Shown here: piece after piece, positions 2,570 through 46,534 of the stretch
How the letters are laid out: every line of letters starts with the position of its first letter
Numbering within the stretch: position 1 is the first letter of the stretch
IMG/VR virus record: IMGVR_UViG_3300021424_000040
Span: 1-55,149 of that record
Reading direction: 5' to 3' (one strand)
DNA length: 55,149 nt
From: a virus
Taxonomy: Duplodnaviria > Caudoviricetes
Program-made: the position numbers and the translations under genes
The notes under the pieces: generated by a model
What the model saw: the letters and a program-made list of their open reading frames with translations, nothing else
What the model was told of the DNA's origin: nothing
Databases searched by the model: none

Positions 2570-3415
2570 TCAGGAATACATCAAAATCTCCGTAGCAGGT
2601 TTAGCAGCGTATCCTGTGCTAGTTTTTTTTCTTCGTCCCGCTGTATATGTTACAGGAAATCGCACCAGATTTAGATCACCTTTTCTATCATCAAAGAATG
2701 TAGAACCATCACAACGATTACACAACATCACATGACCATCAGTTGATTTAGCATGTTCGATCAGTTTTTCTGTAGCGGTATCATCCCAACTTGTACCATA
2801 TTTGGTGAAACTATCCCTATATGGCGGATCAAAATAAGTAAACGAACCAGTAGGACAATCAATGTAATCACCACACAGAATGTTTACACGTTGAAGCAAC
2901 TCATTCCAAGCAAAAACATTTTGCTTATCATACACTACATCAGTTTGATTCAATAGACCAGCTGGAGTGCCATATCTACCATTTGTGTTCTTGTTAATCT
3001 GCCAAATACCGTTAAAACCAGTTTTCATGAGGAAGTACAGAACTCCCGCCTCAAATGGTTTTGACCATTGTTGGTAATCGTATGCGTGAGCATGTCTCAC
3101 TTCAAAGAAATACTTCTTCCTGTCTTCTTTAGACAAACAAATGTATTTTGCCTGAAAGACATCTACAACGTTACAAAACTCTTCTGGATTTTCTTTTACC
3201 GATCGGTAAATATTCATGATATTATCGTTAATATCATTGATATATGCGTGTTCGGGATTATATTTCTGCATGATATGCAAAAACATAGCGCCACCACCAA
3301 AAAATGGTTCGCTATAAGAAGTGATATTTACTGCACTAGGAAGATAAGGCAGTTGATATTTAAGGACTTTGGTTTTGCCGCCTGCCCACATGAATAAAGG
3401 TTTAATCTTGGTCAT
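2570..3415 (-). CDS. dam: Dam-family (D12 class) N6-adenine DNA methyltransferase
   Basis: 'WAGGK', motif I 'EPFFGGGA', 'INDIN', 'FNGIWQIN' and catalytic 'DPPY'. The likely start is MTKIKPLF at 3415. Confidence 0.9.
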   Translation of the reverse strand: MTKIKPLFMWAGGKTKVLKYQLPYLPSAVNITSYSEPFFGGGAMFLHIMQKYNPEHAYINDINDNIMNIYRSVKENPEEFCNVVDVFQAKYICLSKEDRKKYFFEVRHAHAYDYQQWSKPFEAGVLYFLMKTGFNGIWQINKNTNGRYGTPAGLLNQTDVVYDKQNVFAWNELLQRVNILCGDYIDCPTGSFTYFDPPYRDSFTKYGTSWDDTATEKLIEHAKSTDGHVMLCNRCDGSTFFDDRKGDLNLVRFPVTYTAGRRKKTSTGYAAKPATEILMYS

Positions 3416-3617
3416 TCTGATAAGTAGGTGGATGATACTTAAGATATTCAAAGAAAGTTAGTTTCATTTCCTTGTGTGTCATGCCACAGTGTTTTGCTGC
3501 AGCTGGCAGAGTCATCTTAGCATGAAACAATCCTTCATTTGCTTCTCTGACGTTTTCTGGAGTGGTTTTAACTGGCACTTCAAATAATGCTGCTTTATTG
3601 ATTTTTAGTAAACCCAT
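3402..3617 (-). CDS. hypothetical protein, possible small HTH
   Basis: 71-aa ORF; 'MTLPAAAKHCGMT' resembles an HTH. Confidence 0.65.
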   Translation of the reverse strand: MGLLKINKAALFEVPVKTTPENVREANEGLFHAKMTLPAAAKHCGMTHKEMKLTFFEYLKYHPPTYQNDQD

Positions 3618-4233: not shown

Positions 4234-4355
4234 TGAATGACCTCCAGTTTGCGCTTTAATGCCTGCTTACGTGCTTTTGCTTGACGCATTGCCTGAGGTT
4301 TCAAGGTGCGTTTGCATTCTTTTTTAGAATGATGTTGCCAGTTAGGCGTAGTCAT
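4230..4355 (-). CDS. small basic protein (41 aa, MTTPNWQHHSKKECKRTLKPQAMRQAKARKQALKRKLEVIQ)
   Basis: Manual translation. AAAGGA SD upstream; ATGA coupling to the next gene. Confidence 0.65.
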   Translation of the reverse strand: MTTPNWQHHSKKECKRTLKPQAMRQAKARKQALKRKLEVIQ

Positions 4356-4382
4356 TGATCTGTCCTTTTAGATTATATAGGA

Positions 4383-4613
4383 TTATTCAAAGGTAGGGCA
4401 GACAAAATAGGAGAGTTCATCTCCATCTTTTGCAGTTCCCCACTCATGAAACTCTTGACAAAGAGCGAATATGTCAGCATGACGATTTTGTTTGTCAAGC
4501 ATCTCAAAACGTGCTTCCACGTATTCAAGAATGCCGCCAACCACGTCTCCAACGTCCTCGCAATCAATCATCGGAACCACGCCGTCGTCGCCGTAATCGA
4601 TGATGCCTTTCAT
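4383..4613 (-). CDS. small acidic hypothetical protein
   Basis: 76-aa ORF with CAGGA SD, directly downstream of a sigma70-type promoter. Confidence 0.7.
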   Translation of the reverse strand: MKGIIDYGDDGVVPMIDCEDVGDVVGGILEYVEARFEMLDKQNRHADIFALCQEFHEWGTAKDGDELSYFVCPTFE

Positions 4614-4637
4614 GGGTGTCCTGTTCAGTGCTTTGCT

Positions 4638-4667
4638 ACTGTAGCACGGGTGTCAACCCCCTGTCAA
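4638..4667 (-). promoter_or_regulatory. sigma70-type (early) promoter
   Basis: TTGACA (4667-4662), 18-nt spacer, TG-C-TACAGT (4643-4638). Confidence 0.7.
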
Positions 4668-6085
4668 GCCCCCTGACGAAATCCATCAATATAATCTAAA
4701 TGATTCATTGTTTGATCATTAAGTTCCGAAGATAAAGCGAACGGCGGAATATCTGAATAATATTTCCATTTATATCTACGTGCAGATAATGTGTGAAAAA
4801 TCATATCTGCATTAGTAATATCATTACCATCATTGCTGTCAAATCGTTCAATCACATCATCATAAAAATCCCAATGTACATTTTTATGATCTTTCCAAAA
4901 AAGTGTATCGTTCCTATAACAAGTTTTGTATTGTGCTAAAATAAAAGCAGCCCAAAATTTATACAAATGTTCTATAGATTTATTTGAAGTCCACAAACAA
5001 TGTTCATACACAGCTCCAGATCCATATCTCTTTTGTTGACTAAACAAATATTTTAATCGTATCAATGCATCTAAAGTTAATGTTATTCCAGGTGCATCCA
5101 AAGGTTCTAAAAATCCATTACACATACCAATAGTGCAAAAATTGCTATTAAAAGTTTTTTTACTATATCTTGGTTCGAATGAAACTAATCTAGGTGATAT
5201 GTTAGTATCTCCTATATCTTGTAAAAACTCTTCTAACGCTTGTTCATGTGTCACATGTCTATCACTAAAAACATACCCCGTCCCAATCCTAGAATATGTT
5301 GGTGTTATCCATCTCCATCCATATTTCATAGTTTTAGCTATCGTATATGGGTGGAACTGTTTACGTTTTTGTTTATATTCTAAAGGATAAACATATGCTT
5401 TATTGGTTAACAGTATGTCTGATAAATCTACATATTCTAGTCCAAGTTGATCAACGATCAAACTGTTTGAACCAGTTGCAAAAATAAAATAATCTGCTTC
5501 AATATGTGATCCATTTTGAAGTTTTAAAGATTTTATTCTGTTTTCGTCAAATACACAACCTAAAACAGTACTATGAATGACTTCAAAGTTATTTGTTTTT
5601 ATATGATTTGAAAGATAATCAATATATTTTGCAGCATCAAAATGCCAAGAAATAGGGTACTCGTCAAAATTTAATATGACTTCATTTGACCTCACAATGT
5701 TAAATAAATCTTTTGCATATAAATCATGAAATTTTGTTTGACTATCTCTATTAGATAACGAAGCAAAATACGATTTTGATTTTATTTTAATGTGATTCCA
5801 TGGAGTGCCTCCACGTTTAAAGTTGTGTAAAAAATCTTCATCTGACCAGTTTTTATAAAAAACTCCATATTTAACAGCAGCATCAGACTTCACGATAAAC
5901 TCTTGCATTTTACTGCCAATGTCAGCGTGAAAATCATTTAAAACTATAGTATTGGATTCACCAACTCCTATAGGCATTATTTCTGGTGAACCAATAATAG
6001 TAACTTTTTCTATGCTTTTGTCAATGGCAAAATAGTTTGCCGCCATCCATCCAGCTGCTCCAGTTCCAATCACACATATTTTCAT
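4664..6085 (-). CDS. flavin-dependent tryptophan halogenase-family protein (PrnA-like)
   Basis: GxGxxG 'GTGAAG', 'IGVGES', lysine in 'AVKYGV', 'WHFDA', 'GWRWITP', 'RIGTGYVFS' and 'FLEPLDAPG'. Confidence 0.88.
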   Translation of the reverse strand: MKICVIGTGAAGWMAANYFAIDKSIEKVTIIGSPEIMPIGVGESNTIVLNDFHADIGSKMQEFIVKSDAAVKYGVFYKNWSDEDFLHNFKRGGTPWNHIKIKSKSYFASLSNRDSQTKFHDLYAKDLFNIVRSNEVILNFDEYPISWHFDAAKYIDYLSNHIKTNNFEVIHSTVLGCVFDENRIKSLKLQNGSHIEADYFIFATGSNSLIVDQLGLEYVDLSDILLTNKAYVYPLEYKQKRKQFHPYTIAKTMKYGWRWITPTYSRIGTGYVFSDRHVTHEQALEEFLQDIGDTNISPRLVSFEPRYSKKTFNSNFCTIGMCNGFLEPLDAPGITLTLDALIRLKYLFSQQKRYGSGAVYEHCLWTSNKSIEHLYKFWAAFILAQYKTCYRNDTLFWKDHKNVHWDFYDDVIERFDSNDGNDITNADMIFHTLSARRYKWKYYSDIPPFALSSELNDQTMNHLDYIDGFRQGA

Positions 6086-6093
6086 AAAAATCT

Positions 6094-6456
6094 TTAATCA
6101 TATTTTACAAATGGAAAATTTTCAAAACAACTATCTCCATTTGAGGTGAAGATATGAACATATACATTATATTCCTCATAATCCATTTCGTTTATGAAAG
6201 GAAACCATTCTTGAGCTCTTTCTCTAGCGGCTATCTCATCTTCAAAAAACAAAACGTTATGCTTTTGAGATAATAAACAATCGACAACTTCTTCTGGACA
6301 TATTTTTTTGTAATGTTTAACAACTTCATCAATTTTTTGTTGATCTGACGATGCCTGAATACCAACTGCTTTGAAATACATCAAAGATTTCTGCTTAAGA
6401 GCAGCATATTCAGACATAGCTTGCCAAAAACTTTTTGGTTCGTAATATGATTCCAT
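6094..6456 (-). CDS. hypothetical protein
   Basis: 120-aa ORF coupled (TAATG) to the upstream oxygenase. Confidence 0.75.
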   Translation of the reverse strand: MESYYEPKSFWQAMSEYAALKQKSLMYFKAVGIQASSDQQKIDEVVKHYKKICPEEVVDCLLSQKHNVLFFEDEIAARERAQEWFPFINEMDYEEYNVYVHIFTSNGDSCFENFPFVKYD

Positions 6457-7151
6457 TAGTCAGAAAATCTCCTTCTTAGTTGCATGAAAATGTGAGTTAA
6501 TCGATTATTAAGATTATCAAATTCTGGTGTATTTAGTTTGTCTTTATACTCGTTGTTTATCTCATGTATATCACAAATAAGTTCCCTTATCATGGAATCT
6601 CTTATTTTACTTTGAACCCAAAAAACAGCAACATCTCTGGTTCCGCGTGTAACTTCAGTAACTTTATGTATGTAAGATGTAGGATAAAAAATAGCGTAAC
6701 CAGAATCCAGTTTAAAAGACTGAGTTTGATTACCTATTTGTAAAACAAGTTCTCCGCCATCATAATCAGTTGGAGGAGATAAGAAAAGAGTGCAACTATA
6801 ATCAGTTCTGATATAATCATTAGTGCTCTTATGTTTCATTATGGAGTTATCGTTATGGAATCCATAATACATCCCTTCAGTATACCGAGCAAAATTCATT
6901 ATTGATATAGATACAGGCAAAATATAGTTTCTAAAATCATAACAATCCTCCAAAGCATGTGCAATGATATCAGAAACTTCTAGATATTTTTTATCAGTAT
7001 AAGACTCTCCATGATCTGCTTCTAGATTATTTTTCTTATCTAGATTAATAGTTTTACCACCCCACAAACCAGATTCAAAAATAGCAGAGTCATAGTATTT
7101 TTTTATTTTATTGATTTGTATATCATTCAAAACTTTCATAACATAAAACAT
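6456..7151 (-). CDS. PKHD-type (PiuC/YbiX-like) 2OG-Fe(II) oxygenase
   Basis: 'YGFHND' (HxD), 'RTDYSCTLFLSPPTDYDGGEL', 'YPTSYIHKVTEVTRGTR' and 'WVQS'. Confidence 0.9.
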   Translation of the reverse strand: MFYVMKVLNDIQINKIKKYYDSAIFESGLWGGKTINLDKKNNLEADHGESYTDKKYLEVSDIIAHALEDCYDFRNYILPVSISIMNFARYTEGMYYGFHNDNSIMKHKSTNDYIRTDYSCTLFLSPPTDYDGGELVLQIGNQTQSFKLDSGYAIFYPTSYIHKVTEVTRGTRDVAVFWVQSKIRDSMIRELICDIHEINNEYKDKLNTPEFDNLNNRLTHIFMQLRRRFSD

Positions 7152-7157
7152 ACTTTA

Positions 7158-8072
7158 TCAACCCCCAGTATTTTCTAAATAATCTTCTGCGTTTTGTACC
7201 ATTCTATCTATATAAGATTTAGAGTTAGTGTTGCTAGGTGGAACAAACTGCAGCGGTGGGACAATAAGTTCAGTATCAATAGCATCCAATGATTTTTTAA
7301 TTTCTTGTCGTATTCTCTCAAAATCTTCCAGTTCTATTTCGCTTCCATCGACAGACCAATCAACTCTAGTTGATGGTAAAGATAACCAAGCTTGGAATCT
7401 TAGAAGCTTTCTCTTTATAGTTTCAAAATAATATTGATTAAACTGATCTGGAGTAGATAAATATTCTACTTCTTTATTTGGATATCTATCAATATAATGT
7501 TCAGGTATAATAGGAAATTTTGCAGTTAGAGGATTGTTTTCAAACTCTGGATCTATTTCTGGAAGATCTCGCAAATACTGCCTGTATTTTCTATATAAAT
7601 CTTGTTTTTCTGTATCTCTTACCGACCCATCATCAATAAAAATCCAATCAGTCATATAAAGCATTCTTTGCCTTAAAAGACGAAGATTAACCTGCAAAAT
7701 ATTAGTAAACTCATTTACTTTTTTTTGAACTTCTTCTTTTGCTTTTTGCAAATCTAATAATCTTGCTTGCTCATAAAATGATGCAAAAATGTTGTATGCA
7801 TCTTTAGCTTGTTCTAGAGTTGCTTCAGTAAACATGTAGTTTTTTTCTGAAGTTTGACGATATCTATAATCATAGATTTGTTTTTTTCTTTCGCAGTTGT
7901 ATTCTCCGCTCTCATAATACTCAAACAAAAGAATATAATCTTTATCATTGTGCCAGAAAGATCCCAACTGCTCACAAAGCAGCAATCTTTTTTCGTCATC
8001 TAAAGTAACTACCTGCCCCTGATAAACAATAGTACTTTCTTTTAGATTAGCTTGAAGAATAATGTTTGCCAT
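7158..8072 (-). CDS. tail fibre assembly chaperone-domain protein
   Basis: 'LRLLRQRMLYMTDW...YRKYRQYLRDLP...FP' matches the Tfa/tail-assembly chaperone signature R..R..LL..sDW...YRQ.LRDlP. Confidence 0.7.
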   Translation of the reverse strand: MANIILQANLKESTIVYQGQVVTLDDEKRLLLCEQLGSFWHNDKDYILLFEYYESGEYNCERKKQIYDYRYRQTSEKNYMFTEATLEQAKDAYNIFASFYEQARLLDLQKAKEEVQKKVNEFTNILQVNLRLLRQRMLYMTDWIFIDDGSVRDTEKQDLYRKYRQYLRDLPEIDPEFENNPLTAKFPIIPEHYIDRYPNKEVEYLSTPDQFNQYYFETIKRKLLRFQAWLSLPSTRVDWSVDGSEIELEDFERIRQEIKKSLDAIDTELIVPPLQFVPPSNTNSKSYIDRMVQNAEDYLENTGG

Positions 8073-8082
8073 TGATTATAAC

Positions 8083-8697
8083 TTATTTGAGTTTCGGAAC
8101 TTTGATATACCAACCAGTCAAAATATATTTATCTTCAGTAAATACAGTATTTCCTTTGTGAACATGAGTCATTCCAGCTGGCCAAATAACAACTGTACCT
8201 GCTTCTGATTTTATCCTGCGTTTTTGGTATAAAAACTCCGTTTCTGCCTCTCCATCTGGAAGAGTATTTAAATATATTGCCCAAACTAGTTCTCGATGGG
8301 CATGATCATATGATCCAGATTCATAATGCCACACATGATATCCGCCTCCTGGGGGAGTTTTTTGCATCTTAATATCTGTAGATATGATAGGAACGGTTTT
8401 TAACTGACCATATTCTCTGATATAATCCATCACACATGACTGAAGATATTGATTGATCTCTCCAGTAAACTCTGTATTATGTGCATTGATCATCAAAGAC
8501 AAATCTTTACGACCAAGATTATTATCATGAAACTGTTCAGTGCCATCCGCAAAAGAAGCTCTATCATTTGAGAAGACATCATCAAAATATTTTATATATT
8601 TTTTGCAAAGAGATACTGGAACGTGTTTTTTCCAAACACCAATAAACTCATCAAAATCACCCTCCATCAACTCTAGAGGTTTAATAGGTATAGTCAT
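8083..8697 (-). CDS. 2OG-Fe(II) oxygenase (prolyl 4-hydroxylase-like)
   Basis: 'KTPPGGGYHVWHYE' (HxE), 'YLN...GEAETEF', 'IWPAGMTHVHKG' and 'KYILTGW'. Confidence 0.9.
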   Translation of the reverse strand: MTIPIKPLELMEGDFDEFIGVWKKHVPVSLCKKYIKYFDDVFSNDRASFADGTEQFHDNNLGRKDLSLMINAHNTEFTGEINQYLQSCVMDYIREYGQLKTVPIISTDIKMQKTPPGGGYHVWHYESGSYDHAHRELVWAIYLNTLPDGEAETEFLYQKRRIKSEAGTVVIWPAGMTHVHKGNTVFTEDKYILTGWYIKVPKLK

Positions 8698-8712
8698 AGG
8701 TCACTCCAATAT

Positions 8713-9783
8713 TTAAAATGCTTTAATGATGTATTTATTTCGGTGATAAGCTTGCATCATAGACAATGTTTCTGCACTTGTCAAGTTAGTAGTTAATCTG
8801 CTGTCAAATAAAGTTCTAACTGAAGAAGAACTACTTACTTTTAGTGTACCTACGTTACATTCCAACCCAAGTTCAGTAACAGAAATAGTTTTACTTGCCG
8901 TGTTACCATATCCAACTGCACCTGAAGATATTCCTTCGTTGCCACCTTCTTGATCATGACCCCAAGTTCTAGCCTGCCCAGATGTATTTGCGGATATTTG
9001 ATGACTATGTTTTCTTGTTGTTGGAATATCTCCTGGACTTGCATTTTCTACTCTTCTTCGATAAGAAATAATACTACCAAATGCACCGTTTAAACAACAA
9101 ATCAACTCCGTTCCTCCTGGATCAGGTGGATTTACAATACTAGGTCCACCATCTGCTGAAGTTGCTGCTTCTTCATTCGTTAATCTACTATGTGGCAATA
9201 CATGAGTATGAGGTGGAGCAGAATATAGTTGTGTAGAACCAAAAGGACCAAAATTTTGTGTAATGTTACCAGATAATGTTATTGGTGCTTCAACTTCTAC
9301 ATTTTCAAATCCTCTAGATTTTTTACTAACAATTTCAAAAGTATCATCCTGAGTTGGGGTTTGCTGTCTAATATCAGAAATAACGTAAGAACCACCAATA
9401 CCACCAGGATAGTTAACATCTATTGGAGTCCCCCCACCTGCTCCACTATTAGGTGTTAATGTTGCACTGCCTGGAATATTACCATCTGATCTACCAGTTC
9501 CAGTCAAATATCTTGCCCTATAGTTAGGTAGGTTAAAAGTTCCTGTCATATTTGGATATGTACCACTTACAGTGCCGCCATAAGTAGTTCCTATTATTTC
9601 ATACAAAGCATAATATTGGTTTGGATTTAAACTAGAACCATCACATTCCAACCAACCTGGATAATCAACATCAATATCCCAATCATCAGTCGTGCTAGTC
9701 CACCCAGAAGGTTTTGGTATACAAACAACTGTTCCAACAGTTGCTCCACTTTTTTGTGATTGTTTAGAATATTTTACTGCCAT
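8713..9783 (-). CDS. tail-collar domain fibre protein (gp12-like short fibre)
   Basis: Collar motif 'GWLECDGS...YYALYEIIGTTYGG...FNLPNYR'; HxH motifs; C-terminal 'KYIIKAF'. Confidence 0.8.
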   Translation of the reverse strand: MAVKYSKQSQKSGATVGTVVCIPKPSGWTSTTDDWDIDVDYPGWLECDGSSLNPNQYYALYEIIGTTYGGTVSGTYPNMTGTFNLPNYRARYLTGTGRSDGNIPGSATLTPNSGAGGGTPIDVNYPGGIGGSYVISDIRQQTPTQDDTFEIVSKKSRGFENVEVEAPITLSGNITQNFGPFGSTQLYSAPPHTHVLPHSRLTNEEAATSADGGPSIVNPPDPGGTELICCLNGAFGSIISYRRRVENASPGDIPTTRKHSHQISANTSGQARTWGHDQEGGNEGISSGAVGYGNTASKTISVTELGLECNVGTLKVSSSSSVRTLFDSRLTTNLTSAETLSMMQAYHRNKYIIKAF

Positions 9784-9784
9784 T

Positions 9785-10648
9785 TTAATATTTTATTAAA
9801 TATTCTACTAAAATAAATGGTGGTTGAACATCATTTATAACATAAGTATCATCTATATTTATTTTAACATCTGTAAAAACTTTATCTTCTACTGGCGCTG
9901 TCAATGCTGCAATATTTCCAGATATACTTTTAGTTGGTGGCGATCCATACTTAACGGTGTGTGAGTGCAGTGTTGCTTCTTCAGAAAGATCATCACCAAT
10001 CTGAGTGTTTACAGCTTCTCCTCTAAAAGTACACTCAGCTCCAAAGGTTTGTGTAGTGTCATATGAATGATTTTCAGTCACTGCGGTTCCTCTAAGACTT
10101 ACGGTGTTGGCCCAGTGACCATGTGGAAGCATACTATCAGAAGTTACAGTAGATTGATCTGTTGATCCAGGAATAGATATAGCTAGATTACCATTTAATG
10201 TTACAGATCTTGCTGGAATAGCAAAAGAACCTGTATATTGAATAGCAACTGTTATTTGACCTTCCCCCTCTGTAGATTCTAACTCAACATCAACGCCAAC
10301 TTTAGGTTGTAATATTCCACTTGCAGCACCAACAGCATAATAACTTTCATATCCTCCAGATGAAGGACTTGCTTTTATGTATTTTGACCCTAAATCAGGT
10401 AGTTGCATTTCATCATTTTCCAAATCAACATTATCTTTTTTGTAAATTGATTGAGCACCAGTACCTAAAATCCTAGCAAGATTTGGATAAACATCTGCTT
10501 TGACTTTACTGCCATCACACCTAAGATATCCTGCGGGAACATATACTCTCCAATCTTCACCTGTTTTGCCATCCAATTTTCTAGGAAATGGCACTATAGT
10601 TCCAGCAGTTGTTCCGTATTTTCCTTTTTCGTAAGAATAGTTTGCCAT
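9785..10648 (-). CDS. tail-collar domain fibre protein
   Basis: 'GTIVPF...PAGYLRCDGS...YPNLARILGT...LPDLGSKY'; HGH and HSH; C-terminal 'QPPFILVEYLIKY'. Confidence 0.8.
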   Translation of the reverse strand: MANYSYEKGKYGTTAGTIVPFPRKLDGKTGEDWRVYVPAGYLRCDGSKVKADVYPNLARILGTGAQSIYKKDNVDLENDEMQLPDLGSKYIKASPSSGGYESYYAVGAASGILQPKVGVDVELESTEGEGQITVAIQYTGSFAIPARSVTLNGNLAISIPGSTDQSTVTSDSMLPHGHWANTVSLRGTAVTENHSYDTTQTFGAECTFRGEAVNTQIGDDLSEEATLHSHTVKYGSPPTKSISGNIAALTAPVEDKVFTDVKINIDDTYVINDVQPPFILVEYLIKY

Positions 10649-10649
10649 T

Positions 10650-11753
10650 TTACCAAGCCTTGATAATATACTGTATTCGTAACGAAGGAGTTGATGTATT
10701 TACATTAAACTGCAACAACTCTTCAAAAGTTTCGTTTACTGGTGCTACATTACCAGTGGTAATATCATTAACAACAATATTAGATTGTACCTGAAAACTA
10801 CCTTGATTTACAGAATAACCAACTGGACCATGTACGTGAGATCCCAATGAGTTATCATTACTTGAGTTAGCAGTTGGCCATACACTAAAAACATCACTTA
10901 TAGTGGTAGCAAAGTTAAAATTACCTGTGTTAACTAAAGTATTATCATTACTTCCTAACCAGTTTTTAGGTGCGGTATTAATCCTCTCTGGAGCATCAGT
11001 AACTCTGTCATTATTACTGTTGAATCCTCCACCTAAAGGAATGCCACCAGCAATAGAGTTTTTATAATAGTTATTTCTGTTTGTTTGAGCATTATTACAC
11101 TCGCTCAACAAAAAGTTATCATTATCACAACAGTCACCTGTCTGAAAAAGGTCAGGATCAAATATACCACCAGTCGACGGGTCGCACCCAGTAAAGACTG
11201 GATTACTGCCGAACTCGGTCTGGCATCGTTCTACTCCTCCGCTTCCTCTTCCAATACTAGAAAAATTACCAGTATGTGTGTGAGTAGGCCAATGATAATC
11301 TCCCAAAGTTCTAGAAGCAACAGTAACTTCATCAAAATATGCGGGGGGATTGATAGTTTGACCCGTTATTTTAGCAGTATATGTCCCCGAAGCAAGATTA
11401 TTATCAATAGCAACAGTTAGTGCAAGATTAGATGTGTAAATAACATTACTTAGATTTGATTGATTAGTTCCTATTTGACCTGAAAACACCGAAGAAGTTC
11501 CTGAAGGAAGGTAACTTGTTTTCATATCTGCTAAAGCTTTAGCATTTAAATCTGGCAACCTAAAAAAGTTTCCAGACCCACCATAATATTGACCAATAAT
11601 ATCAAACAAATCTGGATAATCAACGGATTGTTTAGTAGATCCATTACATGCGATCCATCCCTTAGGGATACTATCTTCGCCACCAGACCACGGCATAATA
11701 GTGCCGATGGCCATTCCTTTCATTGTTTTTAGTGCATTATAGTTAATAGACAT
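10650..11753 (-). CDS. tail-collar domain fibre protein
   Basis: 'IGTIMPWSG...IPKGWIACNG...YPDLFDIIG..YGG...FRLPDL'; HTH and HVH; C-terminal 'QYIIKAW'. Confidence 0.82.
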   Translation of the reverse strand: MSINYNALKTMKGMAIGTIMPWSGGEDSIPKGWIACNGSTKQSVDYPDLFDIIGQYYGGSGNFFRLPDLNAKALADMKTSYLPSGTSSVFSGQIGTNQSNLSNVIYTSNLALTVAIDNNLASGTYTAKITGQTINPPAYFDEVTVASRTLGDYHWPTHTHTGNFSSIGRGSGGVERCQTEFGSNPVFTGCDPSTGGIFDPDLFQTGDCCDNDNFLLSECNNAQTNRNNYYKNSIAGGIPLGGGFNSNNDRVTDAPERINTAPKNWLGSNDNTLVNTGNFNFATTISDVFSVWPTANSSNDNSLGSHVHGPVGYSVNQGSFQVQSNIVVNDITTGNVAPVNETFEELLQFNVNTSTPSLRIQYIIKAW

Positions 11754-11756
11754 ATC

Positions 11757-14700
11757 TTAGATTTCCATTATCCACCAACCTTGTTGCGCTGAATCAATGG
11801 CAGTTCCATTACCATCCAAGTTACCAATATAAAGAAGACCAAAAGCAGCATTTGGCGTATTAACTAAAAGTTCTCCGCTATCCCAAACAGTAGATCTATT
11901 TCCCGCCAATGTTCCAGTATCATCTCCCTGTATAGGAGTTGCATTCGAACCTTGTTTTGGTGCTCTAATAACTAGAGTACAGTTAAAGGTCAATCCACCA
12001 GAAGCATCAACAAATCTAATCATATCGCCAGTTTGAGGGGTTGCAGGTAACTTAAGAACCAAAGCTCCAGTACCACTTGGTTTAAGTATATAGTTGACAT
12101 TAGATATTAGCGTTGGTGCTGTTGCATCGGTGTTTGTTCCCGCGCTTAGATATAACCATTTTCTACCACCAGAGTTGGTAAAGTAGTTATTGATTCCTCC
12201 TAAATCAACCGAACCATTATTATTTACAGCAAACCTTTCAGTGCTGCTAGCATTAACAACAAAGTCGCCACCGCTAACAGTTAGATCTCCAGTTACAGTC
12301 ACATTATCTGCAAATGTAGCATCATTTCCACTCAATGTTAATACTGTAGATCCAGTACTAGACTTAATATCATTACCTGTTACAGTTAGATCGCCAACAA
12401 CGGTTACGTCGGATCCAGATAATGTTAGAGCAGTGTTTGTGCTTGATTTAATATCATTTCCACTTACTGTTAGATCACCAAGAACAAATGTATCTCCAGA
12501 AGAAGCATCAACATTTAATCTAGAAGTACCACCTACTTGAAGATCGATTAACTTGGAAGCATCATTTGAAGCAGTATTTGTGATATTTAACTTGATACCA
12601 GTAAAAGTAACCGCCGAACTGTTCCAAGTAGCAGTAGCATCTAATACATTAACATCGGTTGTTAATGTTCCTTGTGTAATAGTAGTTTCTCCATTACACA
12701 TATCAACCGTGAATCTATTCGTAGTGCTATCTTTGAGTGAGAATAGTCTATCAGCAGTTGTAGCAGAACAGGAACTTACAAGGTTAAATGGACCATAAAC
12801 AGTCAAACCACCAAGAGAAGTTGCGTCACTTACAACAGTTGCCCCATCAGTCGAATCAACTTCAAACTTAGTTGATCCAGCGCCATTAGTTACTTTAAGT
12901 TTTTGTGCTACAGATCCCGTTGAAGTACCAATCTTTACAGCTTCACCACTGCTACCAGAAACGTTTCTAGAAACAAAGATATAATCCCCTTGCGCTAATG
13001 TTCCACCAAACTCAGACAGATTAAATACGTCAGTTGTGCCACTTCCATCAACGTTTGCGATCAACCAAGTAGAGTCTAAAGCAACATTAACTTTTTTAAT
13101 ATTTGAATCATCAGGATGATTTGTTTTTGTTGGTAGGAAAGTACCATATGGTTGTCTAGTAACAATAATATAATAAGGAGCAGCAGTAGTTCTTCTCAAA
13201 CCACCCGAAGCAACTCTGACGATTTCTGGGTGTGTTGCAGTAGATCCAGATCCAGATACAGCACTATCAATCAAAATATCATCATTTTCAGAATAAGTTG
13301 GTGCAGACTCTAGAGGTAGATAGTATTGATTTCCAGACAATGCTGCTAATGCAGTGCCATCATCAGCAAGATAAGTGTTAATAGCATTTTGGAAGAACGT
13401 TCCACCCCAAGGTCCAGCACCAGCTGTATCTACTTTATTATCAAATCCACTAACAATCGTCACTAAGTCTACATTTTTATCTACGGGAGGAGCTGAAGGA
13501 TATCCCGTATGTGACGATATAGTAGACCCTAAAGATGCTCTAGCGCCATTAAACGAGAACGTAGCAGTGCCACCATCTAGAGTTATATTGCCCTTCACTA
13601 GTAGTGAAGCATCAACTGTTAAACTATTTTTAACTGTTGTAGTGCCACCCTGACCACCAATATTTAAAACTGATGCATTCAATCCGAAAGATATTTCAGA
13701 CGCAGATCCAGAATCAGAGAAGAAGTTTACTTTGCCCGCAGTAGTTCCTAGAGTAACTGTATCACTCAACCCTTTATTAATACCAATAGCAACATCACCC
13801 CAGAACTTAGTTGATCTAGTTTTAACTTCTAAGAAACTATTTGATTCATTTGCATTATAAGCACCACCAAGAGTTAACTTAGAAGAAGTAGCAGATGTAG
13901 ATGGATTTCCAATATCAACTCTCACATTTGCAGAAGAATTGAAAATATCTAATGTGGTAGAACCAGTTGCGGCAGTTGCAAGATTTACATCGTGAGTTCC
14001 AGTTCCTGTGTTTCCGATATTTAATGTTTGATTTACTGCAGCATTACCAATATTAATCGTCTGAGTTGATGTTGTAATATTTGCAATATTAAAAGAAGTT
14101 GCTCTCGCAGCAAAGTTTACTGTTGCTGGATAGTTGCCAATATTGAGAGTACCAGTAAATGTAGTATTATCAACAAAGTTAAACGTACCTGTAGTTACAG
14201 TAGTTGTGATGTCTCCGCCATTAACTTCAATATCAGATTCAAATCTAAAGTTTCCAGTGATTCTACCATCACCATCAACTACTATAGTTCTATCAAGTTC
14301 TGCATTTGTTATATTAATACCAATTCTATTAGTAGAAGTTGAAAGTCTAAATGTTGCTTCACTATTTGGATTTGCGCTATCACCGCCAATCAAGAATGCA
14401 TTTGAAACTCCATTGAATGTTCTGTTGGTTGGATTGGAGTTAGCAACATAGTTATTTGGACTGGTTGCTAGAGTCTTACCACTGAAGAATGCAGTACCAA
14501 CTAAATCTAAGTTTGCTCTAGGTACTGTTTCATCCGAAATAAATGCATTGTTGTACGCAGAATGTGGAGATCTAGAAACAGTATTGATTCCTAGTTTATA
14601 ATCACCAATATTTGATGTCTCTGTTCTAAGAGCTTCAGTACCAATGATTCCCCATTCTTTCCAATATGTGCTACTTCTAGAAACAACAATGTTTGGTTGA

Positions 14701-22333: not shown

Positions 22334-22341
22334 TATTTATA
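22334..22341 (-). promoter_or_regulatory. T4-type late promoter
   Basis: Exact TATAAATA about 40 nt upstream of the giant fibre gene. Confidence 0.85.
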
Positions 22342-22342
22342 A

Positions 22343-22369
22343 GAAAAAACCTCAGGCGAACCTGAGGTT
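22343..22369 (-). terminator. rho-independent terminator after the tRNA cluster
   Basis: AACCTCAGG-TTCG-CCTGAGGTT followed by a T-run. Confidence 0.85.
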
Positions 22370-22391: not shown

Positions 22392-22465
22392 AGCCCAAGG
22401 TCGGACTTGAACCGACGACCTACGGTTTACAAAACCGTTGCTCTATCCAGCTGAGCTACTCAGGC
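22392..22465 (-). tRNA. tRNA-Thr(UGU)
   Basis: Cloverleaf GCCTGAG...; anticodon arm ACGGT-TTTGTAA-ACCGT; GGTTCAAGTCC T-loop; CCA not encoded. Confidence 0.93.
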
Positions 22466-22764: not shown

Positions 22765-22847
22765 TAGGGCGAGGGGGACTTGAACCCCCACAGGCTAAGC
22801 CCGACAGATTTTAAGTCTGGTGTGTCTACCGATTCCACCACCGCCCC
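22765..22847 (-). tRNA. tRNA-Leu(UAA)
   Basis: GGGGCGG acceptor stem; anticodon arm CCAGA-CTTAAAA-TCTGT; long variable arm; GGTTCAAGTCC. Confidence 0.93.
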
Positions 22848-22890: not shown

Positions 22891-22891
22891 G

Positions 22892-22964
22892 TGCTGATTG
22901 TGGGGATCGAACCCACCTGTATCCGATTATGAGTCGGGTGCTTTCACCAGATAGCTAAACCAGC
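22892..22964 (-). tRNA. tRNA with CAU anticodon (elongator Met or lysidine-modified Ile2)
   Basis: GCTGGTT/AATCAGC acceptor; anticodon arm CCCGA-CTCATAA-TCGGA; lacks initiator features. Confidence 0.88.
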
Positions 22965-27665: not shown

Positions 27666-29072
27666 TTAACTGCCTAAGTTATCTCGGATTAGTTCTAGAT
27701 TACATACCGCAATCAAACCTTTGTCATTATCTCTAATAACTTCGTAAGATATCTTCTTGATAAGATACAATCCACTATTTGCTTTATCGTATCTTTCTTC
27801 TTCTCTCTTCGATTGTACAGATTGATTGGGAAGTTTTACGTTTAGTTTATCTCCTGCCCTCAGTTGAAAATTAATGGGTATAGTGATATTTAGTACCTGA
27901 TTATTCAATATCATACCTCTGCTGATAGACTGAGCTAACCATTGCTTTTTAAAATCAGGAAACTCAGTGCTACCACCTTTATCTGGTGATGCTATTTCAT
28001 CTGAATCATGAAATATTTCATGATCAAAACACTGTAACATAATACGAGTTGGATACTCTGATAATGTTTTAATAGTATCTGGAATCTGTTCATCTTTTCC
28101 CAAATGATACATTTGAGGGTATTCTTTACTTAAATCAAAGAAATATTCTTCGTATTCACAACTTGATGTATTGAAAAAAGAAATCATAGATGAATATACC
28201 CCATATCTCATTTTTCTTAAAATATTTTCTTGTGCTGAAAAAGAATAGTTTAATATTTTATATGAATTTTTTTCTGCAGTATCTCTATCATCCTGAGCAA
28301 ATGCATAAACATAATCTTTATGTTTAACAGAAGCTTGTATCAATGCATCTATTGATTTAAAAACATATCCATCATATCTCTCAAAGAACATATACCCTGC
28401 ACTACCAGAAACTACAGCAGCTGATTTTGCTGTTGCTGAGTTAGTAACACCGTTTTCTCCAGATGTTGTTCCGCTACCTGTTGTAGAAGAAGTCGCATTT
28501 GCAATAGTTGGATTTGCTGAACTTGATACACATTCTGGGAGAATAGATGTTATTACATCAAATGGACGCTTGAGTGAAGGTATTAGTTTCATTTTATACT
28601 TACACGTCTCGCCATCAACTATCTTTCTATCTCCTAATTTTATATAGTTATCAATCAAATCCGCTGCAATAGCATCGCCAGTTCCCTTCAAAACTTTACC
28701 AACTCGCAAAGTTTCATTTCTAAGTGCTGCTTCAGAAAATAAATCAAGTATATACAGTTGTTTACTTTTAGAAACGATTCTATTTCTCACACCATAAACA
28801 ACAAACCTCCATTTAAAAGTTTCTTCTGAAATATTTGGTGCTTGTAACTCTATATCTACTATTTCGGTGCCAACAATAGGAACAGTTCCAATAAGGTTTA
28901 TAGCAGTATCAAATATCATCAACTCTGCTGCCATCGTATAACTTTCCACATTTTCAAATATTTTTATGCCAAATATTTGCGCTTCTGGATTGTTACCAGT
29001 AAGCATGTGCTCTTTTCCTTTTGTATCTGTTATAATAACTTTTTTAACTACTGCATTTAAATCCAATCCCAT
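27666..29072 (-). CDS. baseplate hub protein (gp27/late control D-like)
   Basis: 'IFENVES', 'YMFFERYDGYVFKSIDAL', 'LRAGD' and 'SGLYLIKKISY'. The likely start is MGLDLN at 29072. Confidence 0.65.
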   Translation of the reverse strand: MGLDLNAVVKKVIITDTKGKEHMLTGNNPEAQIFGIKIFENVESYTMAAELMIFDTAINLIGTVPIVGTEIVDIELQAPNISEETFKWRFVVYGVRNRIVSKSKQLYILDLFSEAALRNETLRVGKVLKGTGDAIAADLIDNYIKLGDRKIVDGETCKYKMKLIPSLKRPFDVITSILPECVSSSANPTIANATSSTTGSGTTSGENGVTNSATAKSAAVVSGSAGYMFFERYDGYVFKSIDALIQASVKHKDYVYAFAQDDRDTAEKNSYKILNYSFSAQENILRKMRYGVYSSMISFFNTSSCEYEEYFFDLSKEYPQMYHLGKDEQIPDTIKTLSEYPTRIMLQCFDHEIFHDSDEIASPDKGGSTEFPDFKKQWLAQSISRGMILNNQVLNITIPINFQLRAGDKLNVKLPNQSVQSKREEERYDKANSGLYLIKKISYEVIRDNDKGLIAVCNLELIRDNLGS

Positions 29073-31921
29073 TACATTGACCCCCAAGGAGAAGAAATAC
29101 AGAGAACAGATGCCAATCCATGACATGATGGATCGTTAGAATATTCTGAAGTATCTTGAGACGATTTAGAAGGTGACGGAACACTAGATGAGGATTCTCC
29201 GCCAATAACATTAATGATTGCTGTTTCGGACATTTCATCTGCTACTTGATTTGTTGCGGCAATAGGTGGTGCTGAAGGGGCAGTTTTAGGTGGAGATGCA
29301 GTGCTTGTCTCTGATTTTTGTGACGTATTACTTGCTAGTGGATTTAATATACCACTAAACATTTTTACCATTTTTTCAACATCATCTAAACGTTGTTCGA
29401 CCGTTATCTTATTATTGATATTAGCAACGCCAAACATCGAACCACCCTTTTCGTGTCCCAATAAATCTTTTATAGCGGCATCAGTTGCTGCTCTCCTGTT
29501 TCCAAGACCTTGAGGAACTGAACCAAGAGAACCAGAACTAGCTGCTCTCTGTAAAGCAGGAACTGCCTTATCAGATGCACCTTGCCCCATAGGTGTTGTC
29601 AACCATCTAGTAAGACGCTGGAACCAGCCACCCTCTTCAAAAGATGTCAGATTACTCTGCTTTGGAATAGCAATCTCTGGTCCATGGATTCCACCCAAAT
29701 CCTGTTTTTCATTTTGTCTTGACCAAACTGGAGTTTTATTGCTATTATCAATTAGTTTATCATTTGCTCTATAACTATATTCTCCTGGTTTTAATACACT
29801 AGCATTATTAAATGGATTCCAATCCCTCTTTGTACTAACTTGCCTGACAACTCCAGTACGCAAGTCTCTAACTAGATCGAAACTATCTGCCTTACCCTGT
29901 TTTTGGACTTCATCTAGATACAGTTGAGTAACTTTTTCTCCTGGTTTCCATCTATAAATCTGTCCTTTATTATCATACCAATATTTCTTATTACTTCCAA
30001 CAACAGGATTGAGGTCTGCACTTGGAACCATAACTTTATCTCCAGATGCAAGTTGAACCTGTGTTCCTTTAACCTCTTTTTCTGTAGTAAGCGCAGTTTC
30101 GCCATCTGCAACATTTATTCCAGCTGGCGCTATTCTTTCCATAGCTGCTCCAGCACCAGGAATATTTTCCAATGTTTGTTTCGTATCTTCTTGACGCTCA
30201 TTCGATCTTTCTTTATTAGCATCACCAGTTGGTTTTGGCGAACCACTGCCAGTAGTTTTATTATCTGTTTCTTTCTTAGCACCCAAAGCCTCTAGAGAAC
30301 CAGAAATAAGATTTTCTAAGAACTTTGATCTTTCTTTCTTAGCACTGGCATCTTCTTTAAACTTACCACCACCAACTTTTAGATTTGGTAATGCTTGAGA
30401 CATGCCAAACTGTCTAGCAAGATTTTGAATATCTGGACCCAATGCTTGCGCTACGGGAGTTCCCAACGGACCCATTCCTTTCACGAACTGATCAACTACA
30501 GAAAGCATAGAAGCAGCAGATGCTTTTATTCCAGGATCATCAGATCCAGAAAGACCTTTTGATTTTGCATCAGCACTGTTTAAATCAACAACTGCTTCTT
30601 TTCCTGCTTCACCCAACATAACAGAACCAGAAGAGTTCTTTATTCTCGATTCTGATGTTCCATATTCGTTACCCCATGCGGATCCCCAAGACCCCTTTTT
30701 GCTATTTGGATCAAATGCTTGTCTAAAATTTTCTCTAAGATTGGCGTCAATCTCTGCCATCTTAGCATTTGATTTACTAACATCCCCACCTGCCATTATT
30801 AGTTCAAAAATAGCTCTGAATGGAGCTCCAATAGTCTCTGCCACAGCAGACTGGCCGTCAAGCACACGAGCAATAGGATCTTCTGTCATATCTAACAGCT
30901 GATCAGGTATGATCCCAGTTTGTGCTGCTATACCAACTGGAGTAAGCGGAGGTATCATTAAAAAAGTATTCAAAAATGGATTTTTTAGAACTTCCTTTTT
31001 CTTTTTACTGTCAAGTGCTCTCCATTGATCCCCTAGACCACGGGTTGCTTCTCCAACTGCGCTAGCAGCAAGTCCTGTGCCCGCCACAGCGGCAGTTGCT
31101 GCCGCACCAGAGGCAACTGCTCCTGCCGTAATACCACCTCCCGCTGCCGCTCCGCCGCCCGCTGCAGCGCCTCCACCACCCAATCCCAACATGTTAGCAA
31201 CTGGACCAGGAAGGAATCTGGCGATCAGTGCAGACAATCCACCACCAGACATCAATCCAGATACAAAGTTAATAACACCTTGCATCTGTTGCCACTTATC
31301 CATCAAAAATCCAGTTAAGGTATCTCCACCAGTTTTTTCTGATGATGCCATTCCAAACATACCAGAAGCACCAGCAGCTCCAGATGCTGATTGTGGACGT
31401 TCACCGCCCATCAGTTCTATTAGTTCTCCTTGTGATTCTAGTTGATCTGCAAGAATAGCTTGTACACCCGTTATTCCGTTAGAAGTAAAACTACTAGATT
31501 GCAGTTGAGAGTTTAATAGTTGAGTTATAGCAGTTAAACCACCCTGAATGGAGGTTGTATCCGCAACAAGCGAACCAAATCCACCTGTAAGTATTTTTGC
31601 TAGTCCAGCTCCAGCACCACCACCTCCTCCCCCAGTAGGGGATGATTTAGGTTGTTCTGGTTTAGGTGGTTCTTTATATTTAAAGTTTTCTCCAAATGTT
31701 TTTTTGCCAGATAAAAATCCACCACCAAAGTTATGGGCAAGTGCTTTTTTAAATAGTCCTTTTTTATCCTCTTCAGCAACTTCACCGCCTTCTGCTTCTA
31801 CTTTTTCTTGACGTTCTTTTTCTTGTTTAGCATCATCTCTAGATTGCATAGCTTTACCAGCTATAAATCCACCTAATGTTTGTCCACTCGTTTTTTGAGA
31901 TTGCTCTACGCCAAATGACAT
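29072..31921 (-). CDS. tape-measure-like / baseplate hub-associated protein (paralog 3)
   Basis: 949 aa; Gly/Ala-rich hydrophobic helices; 'MLGEAGKEAVV' and 'FEEGG' motifs typical of TMP C-termini. Confidence 0.6.
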   Translation of the reverse strand: MSFGVEQSQKTSGQTLGGFIAGKAMQSRDDAKQEKERQEKVEAEGGEVAEEDKKGLFKKALAHNFGGGFLSGKKTFGENFKYKEPPKPEQPKSSPTGGGGGGAGAGLAKILTGGFGSLVADTTSIQGGLTAITQLLNSQLQSSSFTSNGITGVQAILADQLESQGELIELMGGERPQSASGAAGASGMFGMASSEKTGGDTLTGFLMDKWQQMQGVINFVSGLMSGGGLSALIARFLPGPVANMLGLGGGGAAAGGGAAAGGGITAGAVASGAAATAAVAGTGLAASAVGEATRGLGDQWRALDSKKKKEVLKNPFLNTFLMIPPLTPVGIAAQTGIIPDQLLDMTEDPIARVLDGQSAVAETIGAPFRAIFELIMAGGDVSKSNAKMAEIDANLRENFRQAFDPNSKKGSWGSAWGNEYGTSESRIKNSSGSVMLGEAGKEAVVDLNSADAKSKGLSGSDDPGIKASAASMLSVVDQFVKGMGPLGTPVAQALGPDIQNLARQFGMSQALPNLKVGGGKFKEDASAKKERSKFLENLISGSLEALGAKKETDNKTTGSGSPKPTGDANKERSNERQEDTKQTLENIPGAGAAMERIAPAGINVADGETALTTEKEVKGTQVQLASGDKVMVPSADLNPVVGSNKKYWYDNKGQIYRWKPGEKVTQLYLDEVQKQGKADSFDLVRDLRTGVVRQVSTKRDWNPFNNASVLKPGEYSYRANDKLIDNSNKTPVWSRQNEKQDLGGIHGPEIAIPKQSNLTSFEEGGWFQRLTRWLTTPMGQGASDKAVPALQRAASSGSLGSVPQGLGNRRAATDAAIKDLLGHEKGGSMFGVANINNKITVEQRLDDVEKMVKMFSGILNPLASNTSQKSETSTASPPKTAPSAPPIAATNQVADEMSETAIINVIGGESSSSVPSPSKSSQDTSEYSNDPSCHGLASVLCISSPWGSM

Positions 31922-46138: not shown

Positions 46139-46534
46139 TTAGTTAGATGTAAGATTTAAAGTCACAGAAATAATGTCTCCACTATTTGCTATATTATATG
46201 GAGCACTAGGAAATCTTTCAGCAAACAATACCTGATTGTTTGTTGTAGTGATAACATAATATCCATGTACGTTTCCAACAGATCCAGTAAAAGACCACGT
46301 TTGTGTTGGATATGATGCAGTTGGACCGTTAACTGTCCACGCACTGCCGATTAGATTGATAGCAGCATAACCATTGCTCTGAGTTACCTGAGTAAAATCT
46401 GTAGATAAACTATCTTGCGATGGAGTATAGTCATTACTATACAAACGCAGTTGCAAATTTTCTACAGAAACATCATTTGCTACCAAATACGCTAAAGCTA
46501 AACTTTTAGCAGCATCAGTTACTTGTAGCGCCAT
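46139..46534 (-). CDS. beta-rich hypothetical protein, possibly structural
   Basis: 'LRLYSND.TP...GYAAI.L...W...ASYP.QTWSF...GYYV...AERF'. Confidence 0.65.
   Translation of the reverse strand: MALQVTDAAKSLALAYLVANDVSVENLQLRLYSNDYTPSQDSLSTDFTQVTQSNGYAAINLIGSAWTVNGPTASYPTQTWSFTGSVGNVHGYYVITTTNNQVLFAERFPSAPYNIANSGDIISVTLNLTSN

Follow-up and report, generated by a model that had tools for sequence, protein, structure and literature searches.

On what do the 2-oxoglutarate (2OG)/Fe(II)-dependent oxygenases and the tryptophan-halogenase homologues of cyanophages act? Both kinds of enzyme are numerous in these viruses, and their roles have been debated since the first genomes. The question is raised again by the window analysed here, the whole 55-kb IMG/VR record IMGVR_UViG_3300021424_000040 (55,149 nucleotides, estimated to be 29% complete), which derives from a T4-like cyanomyovirus carrying psbA, speD, phoH, thyX, gp32 and baseplate and tail genes. 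Between positions 4664 and 11753, two 2OG oxygenases, termed 2OG-A and 2OG-B, and a halogenase share a run of minus-strand genes with three tail-collar fibres and a chaperone of the tail fibre assembly (Tfa) type (Table 1). An earlier note on this DNA had proposed that all three enzymes modify the receptor-binding fibres by hydroxylation or halogenation. We find that the order collar fibre, 2OG oxygenase, chaperone, 2OG oxygenase is a fixed cassette of T4-like cyanophages. The halogenase, to judge from its motifs and its gene neighbours, is catalytically intact and is mobile, lineage-specific cargo rather than a fixed member of the fibre system. The best single reading of the locus, which we hold tentatively and rate as somewhat short of probable, is that the oxygenases hydroxylate a conserved protein element during fibre maturation.

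A fixed cassette of fibre, oxygenase and chaperone genes

IMG/VR was searched with 2OG-A and the gene neighbourhoods of the best 80 of at least 599 loci (48-63% identity) were labelled; clustered at 90% and 70% identity, they fall into 43 and 25 groups, and the counts drawn from them are conditional on 2OG-A. In 80/80 loci the next gene after the oxygenase is the chaperone, and a collar fibre lies directly upstream of the oxygenase in all 79 that could be evaluated. A second 2OG gene stands right after the chaperone in 63 of 71 loci; in the eight exceptions this place is taken by a homologue of orf120, the conserved 120-amino-acid open reading frame (ORF) that follows 2OG-B in the window (six loci), or by an unlabelled ORF (two loci). 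In 53 of 58 loci, one of the four genes that follow the chaperone is a homologue of orf120. The median gaps within the cassette are 8, -1 and 2 bp. Because the core order recurs in every one of the 80 related loci, the arrangement is not a chance juxtaposition. The earlier note had named the lack of a conserved linkage to fibre genes as a result that would refute its idea; this linkage is conserved for both oxygenases and fails for the halogenase, which is present in none of the 80 loci.

The same order can be read from the deposited annotation of six genera (S-RIM44, S-CAM4, S-H9-1, ACG-2014h, S-PM2 and S-RSM4), and gene coordinates show it in further phages too. In five cassette genomes, the 2OG-A profile scored 263-305 bits against a gene right before the chaperone (5/5). 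In Syn9, P-TIM40, S-SZBM1, S-B64 and HTVC008M, the chaperone profile found no match and the best oxygenase match reached at most 107 bits (5/5). A 2OG-A orthologue and the chaperone are therefore both present or both absent in 10 of 10 genomes. For the two oxygenases, the linkage expected between a tailoring enzyme and its substrate is kept, including co-absence in five of five genomes.

The main rival to protein hydroxylation, possible although in our judgement rather unlikely, is that the oxygenases and the halogenase act on small molecules, and that their position among the fibre genes reflects a plastic region piggy-backing on late transcription. The molecules concerned could be a siderophore-like compound, part of 2OG-linked host metabolism or a secondary metabolite that receives halogen or hydroxyl groups. 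Consistent with plasticity, the cargo in the slot after orf120 varies from phage to phage; other small genes occupy it in S-H9-1 and ACG-2014h, which are otherwise laid out like the window. A plastic region leaves unexplained, however, why the oxygenase stands exactly between the fibre and the chaperone, a few bases from each, in all 80 loci, and equally the joint loss of 2OG-A and the chaperone.

The genes themselves are already widely annotated. What is new is the strict coupling, at the level of a cassette, of a prolyl 4-hydroxylase (P4H)-type and a PiuC-type oxygenase to a fibre-chaperone pair. As fixed parts of this cassette in cultured phages such as S-PM2, Syn1, S-RSM4 and S-RIM44, the two oxygenases gain a concrete and testable context. 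If no hydroxylation were to be found, the strict gene order would still call for another explanation.

The two oxygenases and their predicted targets

In an alignment of 47 sequences of 2OG-A, His121, His124, Glu126, His178, His180 and Lys190 are invariant; identity to the window copy is 54-81%. The pattern of a metal triad followed, some 10 residues past its distal histidine, by a basic 2OG-binding residue fits His124, Glu126, His180 and Lys190; the metal-binding histidines were assigned by spacing, without superposition. The AlphaFold2 model of 2OG-A (pLDDT, the predicted local distance difference test score, 89.8) is a double-stranded β-helix. Its closest folds in a Foldseek search are the EF-Tu prolyl hydroxylase of P. 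putida (4j25), the collagen prolyl hydroxylase of PBCV-1 (5c5t) and human PHD2 (TM 0.62-0.72), and the top matches, with E about 1e-8 and template modelling (TM) scores of 0.6-0.74, are all protein hydroxylases. A phmmer search of PDB sequences with 2OG-A gave no matches. The modelled fold resembles that of protein prolyl hydroxylases, and protein proline hydroxylation is the predicted activity. That the best structural matches are protein prolyl hydroxylases, and not small-molecule oxygenases, speaks against a metabolite as the substrate.

Residues 62-230 of 2OG-B align with solved PiuC structures (9ghl, E 2.1e-25; 3dkq, E 1.8e-24), with the H-x-D, distal histidine and R-G-x-R stretches identical or conservatively substituted. 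Homologues of 2OG-B are placed after the chaperone in many cyanophages, and in S-PM2 and Syn1 the orthologue is already annotated as PiuC. The next gene in many cassettes encodes a protein of about 170 amino acids and is labelled 'DNA endonuclease V'. Three such genes (L001, 11262-11777; L002, 11072-11587; L114, 5989-6498; from S-RIM44, S-CAM4 and S-PM2) match PF13640 with 30.5, 24.0 and 29.1 bits, and the pyrimidine-dimer glycosylase family is matched by none of the three. The label is probably an error passed on from one annotation to the next. Since this gene matches PF13640, many cassettes hold three 2OG-type genes; the window cassette is without the third. A protein-atlas search with orf120 returned a best score of 0.80, below the level of a lead.

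Passages of Sullivan et al. 2010 tie cyanophage 2OG oxygenases to host 2OG/nitrogen status and to DNA repair, and passages of later cyanophage genome papers repeat the DNA repair idea. On this explanation, the oxygenases of the cassette would repair or modify DNA or RNA in the manner of AlkB. Besides the repeated suggestion, it can draw on PHROGs, where both oxygenases weakly match families that carry the label DNA endonuclease. We consider it very improbable. The 'DNA endonuclease V' labels seem wrong, with PF13640 at or above its cut-off in two of the three genes and the glycosylase family unmatched; prolyl hydroxylases top the fold search; and the genes are located inside the fibre module.

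If the oxygenases act on proteins of that module, which element would be hydroxylated? A short C-terminal motif is common to the fibres of all loci and to the window's three collar fibres; the giant fibre is without it. Collar fibre 1 has HxH motifs and a conserved C-terminal end, and several H-x-H motifs occur in the collar fibres, recalling the metal sites known from T4 fibres. Complete copies of the fibre encoded just before 2OG-A are 349 to 1568 amino acids long (loci L020-L099). The fibres showed neither collagen-like nor proline-rich repeats. A conserved C-terminal proline was considered as a universal hydroxylation site and dropped, as it is not invariant and is absent from the window's fibre.

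The chaperone gene is separated by one gene from the fibres upstream of it; the match of the protein to PF16778, which is over the cut-off, covers residues 129-172. In an alignment of 33 chaperone sequences, Trp40, Asp45, Tyr79, Leu138, Asp142, Asp148, Arg164, Arg168 and Pro190 are invariant and Pro187 is nearly so, both prolines falling within a conserved motif. Identity to the window copy is 20-38%, apart from one close relative at 84%. Given that 2OG-A is far better conserved than either the chaperone or the upstream fibre, the likeliest target would be a conserved element and not the variable receptor-binding part. A predicted complex of the chaperone with 2OG-A scored 0.21 against a mark of 0.32; run without controls, this counts neither for nor against binding.

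The invariant Pro190 and nearly invariant Pro187 in the conserved chaperone motif also allow a more specific idea, namely that the P4H-fold enzyme works as a PHD-like sensor, tying fibre maturation to host 2OG, oxygen or iron by hydroxylating the chaperone. The fold of 2OG-A is similar to those of PHD2 and the bacterial EF-Tu prolyl hydroxylase, and 2OG is a nitrogen-status signal in cyanobacteria, as set out in passages of Sullivan et al. 2010. The idea is conjecture throughout, and we give it very little credence.

We propose the following course of events. The region is a gp12-like (tail-collar) short-fibre module that would be read from one T4-type late promoter, its cassette core consisting of one or more collar fibres, a 2OG oxygenase of prolyl-hydroxylase fold, the Tfa-like chaperone, a PiuC-like 2OG oxygenase and a small conserved ORF. 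The two oxygenases would be made together with the fibres, and would hydroxylate a conserved protein element of the module as the fibres mature. The likeliest targets would be the shared C-terminal part of the fibres or the chaperone itself. The earlier idea that the enzymes tailor the receptor-binding fibres survives in part: the linkage of the oxygenases to fibres and the prolyl-hydroxylase fold support it, while the linkage of the halogenase and the cellular relatives of 2OG-A do not.

Several points weigh against protein hydroxylation. The function is inferred from gene order and fold alone. The 80 loci of the census were chosen via the oxygenase, and their gene labels derive from crude ORF calls and from profiles iterated from the window proteins. 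T4-like cyanophage genomes are broadly syntenic, so that the order alone can be inherited architecture. The fibre C-termini contain no invariant proline, and the common one is absent from the window's own fibre. Our literature searches yielded no protein substrate for PiuC-type enzymes; as for PiuC function, the papers listed were resistance papers only. Pairs of halogenase and 2OG genes occur away from fibres (HTVC008M, at terS/terL; L009; L013), which fits a shared non-fibre substrate. Finally, the closest cellular relatives of 2OG-A (36-38% identity) were examined at 10 loci in metagenome-assembled genomes (MAGs): two stand with TonB-dependent receptors, two with tryptophan-halogenase genes, two are on phage-like contigs and four are alone. 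A collar protein is beside the relative in 0/10.

These cellular relatives are also a ground for a small-molecule role. In two gammaproteobacterial MAGs (L117, 2881-6579; L118, 2685-6579), the relative directly follows a TonB-dependent receptor gene, a pairing of the same kind as bacterial piuA-piuC, and at L119 and L121 it stands beside tryptophan-halogenase genes. Both oxygenase types of the phage have bacterial cousins beside outer-membrane receptors: 2OG-B is PiuC-like, and bacterial PiuC is discussed with a siderophore receptor in the cefiderocol papers listed. A metabolite substrate would likewise suit the halogenase-2OG pairs found apart from fibres, the reading of the halogenase and oxygenase array of Syn9 as secondary-metabolite genes in passages of Iyer et al. 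2010 (PMC2938197), and the tie to host 2OG/nitrogen status drawn by Sullivan et al. 2010.

The literature bears on hydroxylation during fibre maturation at a few points. An Ofd1-like 2OG oxygenase, not necessarily an orthologue of the cassette enzymes, is reported in the virion proteome of a cyanomyovirus in a 2025 paper. A 2026 preprint describes mutations in 2OG oxygenase genes of coevolved cyanophages, the genes not being named in the text available. In the literature passages searched, no gene-specific expression timing of orthologous genes was found. The idea of fibre hydroxylation in cyanophages was not found in print, most subscription papers being outside the search. If the fibres or the chaperone are hydroxylated, virion maturation in tailed phages would include a step of a new kind, and phage infectivity would be linked to host physiology in the most abundant phototrophs of the ocean.

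The halogenase next to the cassette

The halogenase forms one clade (100/100 support) with homologues of 38-51% identity. The flavin adenine dinucleotide motif GxGxxG (Gly7, Gly9, Gly12), the catalytic Lys72 and the stretches WRWITP and FLEPLD are invariant in the clade. Lys72 is aligned with a lysine of PrnA, which we take to be Lys79. The WxWxIP site reads W-R-W-I-T-P, with both tryptophans and the proline kept and the I/P spacing shifted. The model (pLDDT 86.7) has the tryptophan-halogenase fold, with the best TM scores to the orphan marine enzymes 9lu2 and 2pyx. In the F-L-E-P-L-E motif of tryptophan halogenases, aspartate replaces the last glutamate, invariantly in the clade, and the protein, at 473 amino acids, is shorter than all solved chains listed (497-554 amino acids). 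For these two reasons, we file it as a flavin-dependent halogenase and not as a tryptophan halogenase.

Within the clade, the halogenase is found beside neck genes, RNA ligase/polynucleotide kinase, ferredoxin/psbA, talC and glutaredoxin, or gp33/gp32, and at one locus, L010, in the company of an S74 fibre and five 2OG genes; only two of eight context types are near fibres. The layout seen in the window is shared only by relatives of 88% identity. In two related genomes with many flanking genes in common (G002 and G003), the distance between halogenase and chaperone is 14.0 and 14.6 kb. It is this distance, together with the varied contexts and the absence from all 80 cassette loci, that leads us to regard the gene as cargo, and on the same grounds the earlier note's inclusion of the halogenase in the fibre system does not hold. 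In this lineage, the gene would have landed in the variable slot after the cassette, where it probably rides on the late transcript. It should not be lumped with the oxygenases on adjacency alone.

Hydroxylation and halogenation of the receptor-binding fibres by both oxygenases and the halogenase together, as first proposed, are in our view improbable. The tight run behind one late-promoter motif, with the halogenase a mere 8 bp away, is in its favour, as are the halogenase motifs kept invariant throughout the clade. Fibre-adjacent halogenases also recur in separate lineages. In other halogenase clades, four genera (Syn9, P-TIM40, S-RIM44 and S-SZBM1) have a fibre followed by gp38-like glycine-rich adhesins, one or two halogenases and a 2OG array. 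Locus L010 is a further case. Of all 18 halogenase loci inspected, six are preceded by fibre genes at a distance of up to about 5 kb; this is not so for the remaining 12 (S-B64, Syn1, S-PM2, S-MbCM6, HTVC008M and seven IMG/VR loci). As much of each of these genomes is taken up by fibres and no permutation test was made, six of 18 cannot be called enrichment, and it is not clearly above chance. The block in four genera can be plain vertical inheritance. Set against joint tailoring are, besides, the same three facts that mark the gene as cargo, as well as the halogenase fold, which showed no discernible protein-halogenating feature. We also considered whether fibre-adjacent halogenases go back to one ancient association; this was rejected, because the clade of the window halogenase is separate from the Syn9-type clades.

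Some of these loci merit separate mention. The viral contig L010 (1115-14975) carries, in order, an S74-domain fibre, a 1144-amino-acid protein, three 2OG genes, a halogenase, two further 2OG genes, a sulfotransferase and an adenylyl sulphate (APS) kinase, an order that resembles the hydroxylate-then-sulfate operons proposed in passages of Iyer et al. 2010. In the Pelagibacter phage HTVC008M (L110, 5418-7377), a phytanoyl-CoA-dioxygenase-type 2OG gene and a halogenase are located between terS and terL, within the operon for packaging. Two Syn9 proteins encoded upstream of the halogenases and labelled 'tail fiber assembly', gp38 and gp39 (L100, 11364-13348), are glycine-rich and match PF21722; presumably they are gp38-type adhesins and not plain chaperones.

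A wider generalisation would be that T4-like cyanophages tailor their host-recognition apparatus post-translationally, with the P4H-type and PiuC-type oxygenases of the cassette hydroxylating fibre or chaperone residues and with halogenases in some lineages, or sulfotransferases in others, adding marks to fibres or gp38-like adhesins. We think this improbable. Were it true, the need for 2OG, O2 and Fe(II) would couple fibre maturation, and through it infectivity or host range, to the physiology of the infected cell.

The gene run and its relation to known systems

The run consists of nine consecutive minus-strand ORFs, from the giant fibre to the halogenase, separated by 3, 1, 1, 15, 10, 6, -1 and 8 bp in order (Table 1). 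Its description in the earlier note, as nine genes with gaps of at most 15 bp and with the chaperone between the two oxygenases, is borne out by the coordinates and family matches. A late promoter had been placed at 22334, and the T4-type motif TATAAATA is indeed found there, at 22334-22341, as the sole exact minus-strand copy between 4 and 22 kb. Over the whole window there are 5 copies against 5.1 expected by chance, so that the position of the motif, and not the count, is the telling part. It is preceded by a tRNA-Thr gene and the 9-pair hairpin with T run. Within the run, a terminator scan gave eight minus-strand hairpins, all of them weak, with 5-7 pairs and poor T tails, and the total in the scanned region, 15, is not clearly above the 9.2 +/- 3.3 of shuffles. 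The claim that the run lacks an internal terminator thus stands as far as strong ones go, none having been found; with eight weak hairpins present, the scan does not prove the absence of terminators. The sigma-70-like match at the halogenase stop codon is likely to be the start of the next unit.

Table 1. Genes of the run and flanking signals, in order of transcription except for the upstream hairpin and motif. Pfam cut-offs are 24 bits (PF07484), 27 bits (PF13640) and 26.6 bits (PF16778).
Feature	Position	Strand	Evidence
Giant fibre protein, 3512 aa	11757..22295	-	phrog_4527 short tail fiber, E 0; phrog_529 tail fiber, E 2e-290
Tail-collar fibre 1, gp12-like, 367 aa	10650..11753	-	PF07484, 59.6 bits; phrog_4591, E 2e-49
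Tail-collar fibre 2, 287 aa	9785..10648	-	PF07484, 28.5 bits; phrog_4714, E 3e-45
Tail-collar fibre 3, 356 aa, directly 5' of 2OG-A	8713..9783	-	PF07484, 50.4 bits; phrog_4924, E 8e-33
2OG-A, P4H-fold 2OG/Fe(II) oxygenase, 204 aa	8083..8697	-	PF13640, 32.6 bits; phrog_61, E 4e-47
Tfa-like tail fibre assembly chaperone, 304 aa	7158..8072	-	PF16778, 29.8 bits; phrog_4697, E 3e-36
2OG-B, PiuC/PKHD-type 2OG/Fe(II) oxygenase, 231 aa	6456..7151	-	PF13640, 47.9 bits; PiuC 9ghl, E 2e-25
orf120, conserved 120-aa ORF, 1-bp overlap with 2OG-B stop	6094..6456	-	phrog_4883, E 1e-8
Flavin-dependent halogenase, 473 aa, last gene of tight run	4664..6085	-	PF04820, 246.7 bits
T4-type late-promoter motif TATAAATA	22334..22341	-	38 bp before giant fibre start codon
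Strong hairpin and T run, closes upstream tRNA unit	22348..22369	-	9 pairs, 5 GC, T-rich tail
Sigma-70-like match (TTGACA, 18 nt, TACAGT, with TG), overlaps halogenase stop codon	4638..4667	-	consensus match only

Base composition offers a further view of the run. In the window, the G+C content at third codon positions (GC3) is 0.233 for structural genes (n = 14) against 0.357 for non-structural genes (n = 20; Mann-Whitney p 2e-4), the labels having been assigned by us from PHROGs categories. This split may be a codon-usage signature of expression class. 2OG-A, the chaperone, 2OG-B, orf120 and the halogenase have GC3 values of 0.19-0.24, which fits, as indirect evidence, membership in the late structural expression class. 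For the oxygenases, this sits poorly with a small-molecule role. For the halogenase, whose value of 0.19 is in the structural class and is followed by a jump to 0.44 in the next ORF, it favours joint tailoring of the fibres. Outliers are a head-closure gene (0.44) and two small ORFs at 46139-47241 (0.21-0.26). The low G+C at 5-8 kb (0.30-0.32) was considered as a sign of recent acquisition and rejected: the genes concerned have the GC3 of structural genes, and the dip is due to amino-acid composition.

Other features of the window were noted in passing. Three tRNA genes lie on the minus strand just upstream of the fibre operon (Thr-TGT, 22392-22465; Leu-TAA, 22765-22847; Met-CAT, 22891-22964), with perfect sigma-70 consensus matches near them at 23123-23095 and 22890-22862. 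Amid the baseplate and tail genes, a 949-amino-acid ORF (29072-31921, minus strand) has no PHROGs match at E 1e-5, and it overlaps the ORF at 27666-29126 by 55 bp. Downstream of the run, at 2570-3451 on the minus strand, is a Dam-type N6-adenine DNA methyltransferase gene (PF02086, 96.8 bits); a methyltransferase likewise lies 3' of the halogenase/2OG array of Syn9, suggesting the same genomic neighbourhood. A megablast search with positions 4300-12000 found no match in a phage collection that may leave out the window's relatives.

How does the locus compare with systems already described? Its second oxygenase is closest to the proteobacterial PiuC and YbiX proteins (9ghl, 3dkq), whose metal and 2OG motifs are conserved in 2OG-B. 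The bacterial genes, however, lie beside iron-uptake receptor genes, whereas the phage gene follows a fibre chaperone. The halogenase in turn matches VirX1 of cyanophage Syn10 (6qgm) with E 1e-32. VirX1 has iodinating activity. The Syn9-type arrays resemble the window in having a halogenase and 2OG oxygenases in one run, 3' of fibre/adhesin genes (Syn9, P-TIM40, S-RIM44 and S-SZBM1). In contrast to these and to VirX1, the window halogenase is single and belongs to a separate clade; it is about 30% identical, and its 473 amino acids compare with 489-545. The array of Syn9, with ten dioxygenases and two halogenases, is the one read as secondary-metabolite genes in the passages of Iyer et al. 2010 mentioned above.

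Virus-encoded protein hydroxylases that act on virion or collagen-like proteins are known from other hosts. The collagen prolyl hydroxylase of PBCV-1 (5c5t) is, like 2OG-A, a viral 2OG oxygenase of P4H fold, and it ranks second in the 2OG-A fold search with TM scores of 0.62/0.70. Mimivirus L230 is a viral lysyl hydroxylase. 2OG-A differs from the PBCV-1 type in its low identity (14-19%), its bacterial host and its tailed virion, and it is known from sequence and a model.

An association of collar proteins with modifying enzymes has been predicted before, outside viruses. Passages of Iyer et al. 2010 deal with bacterial operons in which tail-collar-domain or collagen-like proteins are joined with 2OG dioxygenases and sulfotransferases, and propose that these enzymes act on the tail-collar-domain proteins. 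The cyanophage cassette has in common with these operons, as described in that text, a tail-collar-domain protein co-encoded with 2OG dioxygenases, and L010 adds a sulfotransferase and APS kinase. The operons differ in being cellular and without a Tfa chaperone, and their role, too, is a prediction.

Another close counterpart is the classical module of fibre and Tfa chaperone genes of the Mu/P2/T4 type (PF16778). In the window, as in these modules, a Tfa-domain chaperone is encoded after the fibres, and a late-promoter motif is present. To our knowledge, no insertion of an oxygenase is known in a classical fibre-chaperone module. The cyanophage cassette, in contrast, always has an oxygenase between the fibre and the chaperone and usually a second one after it.

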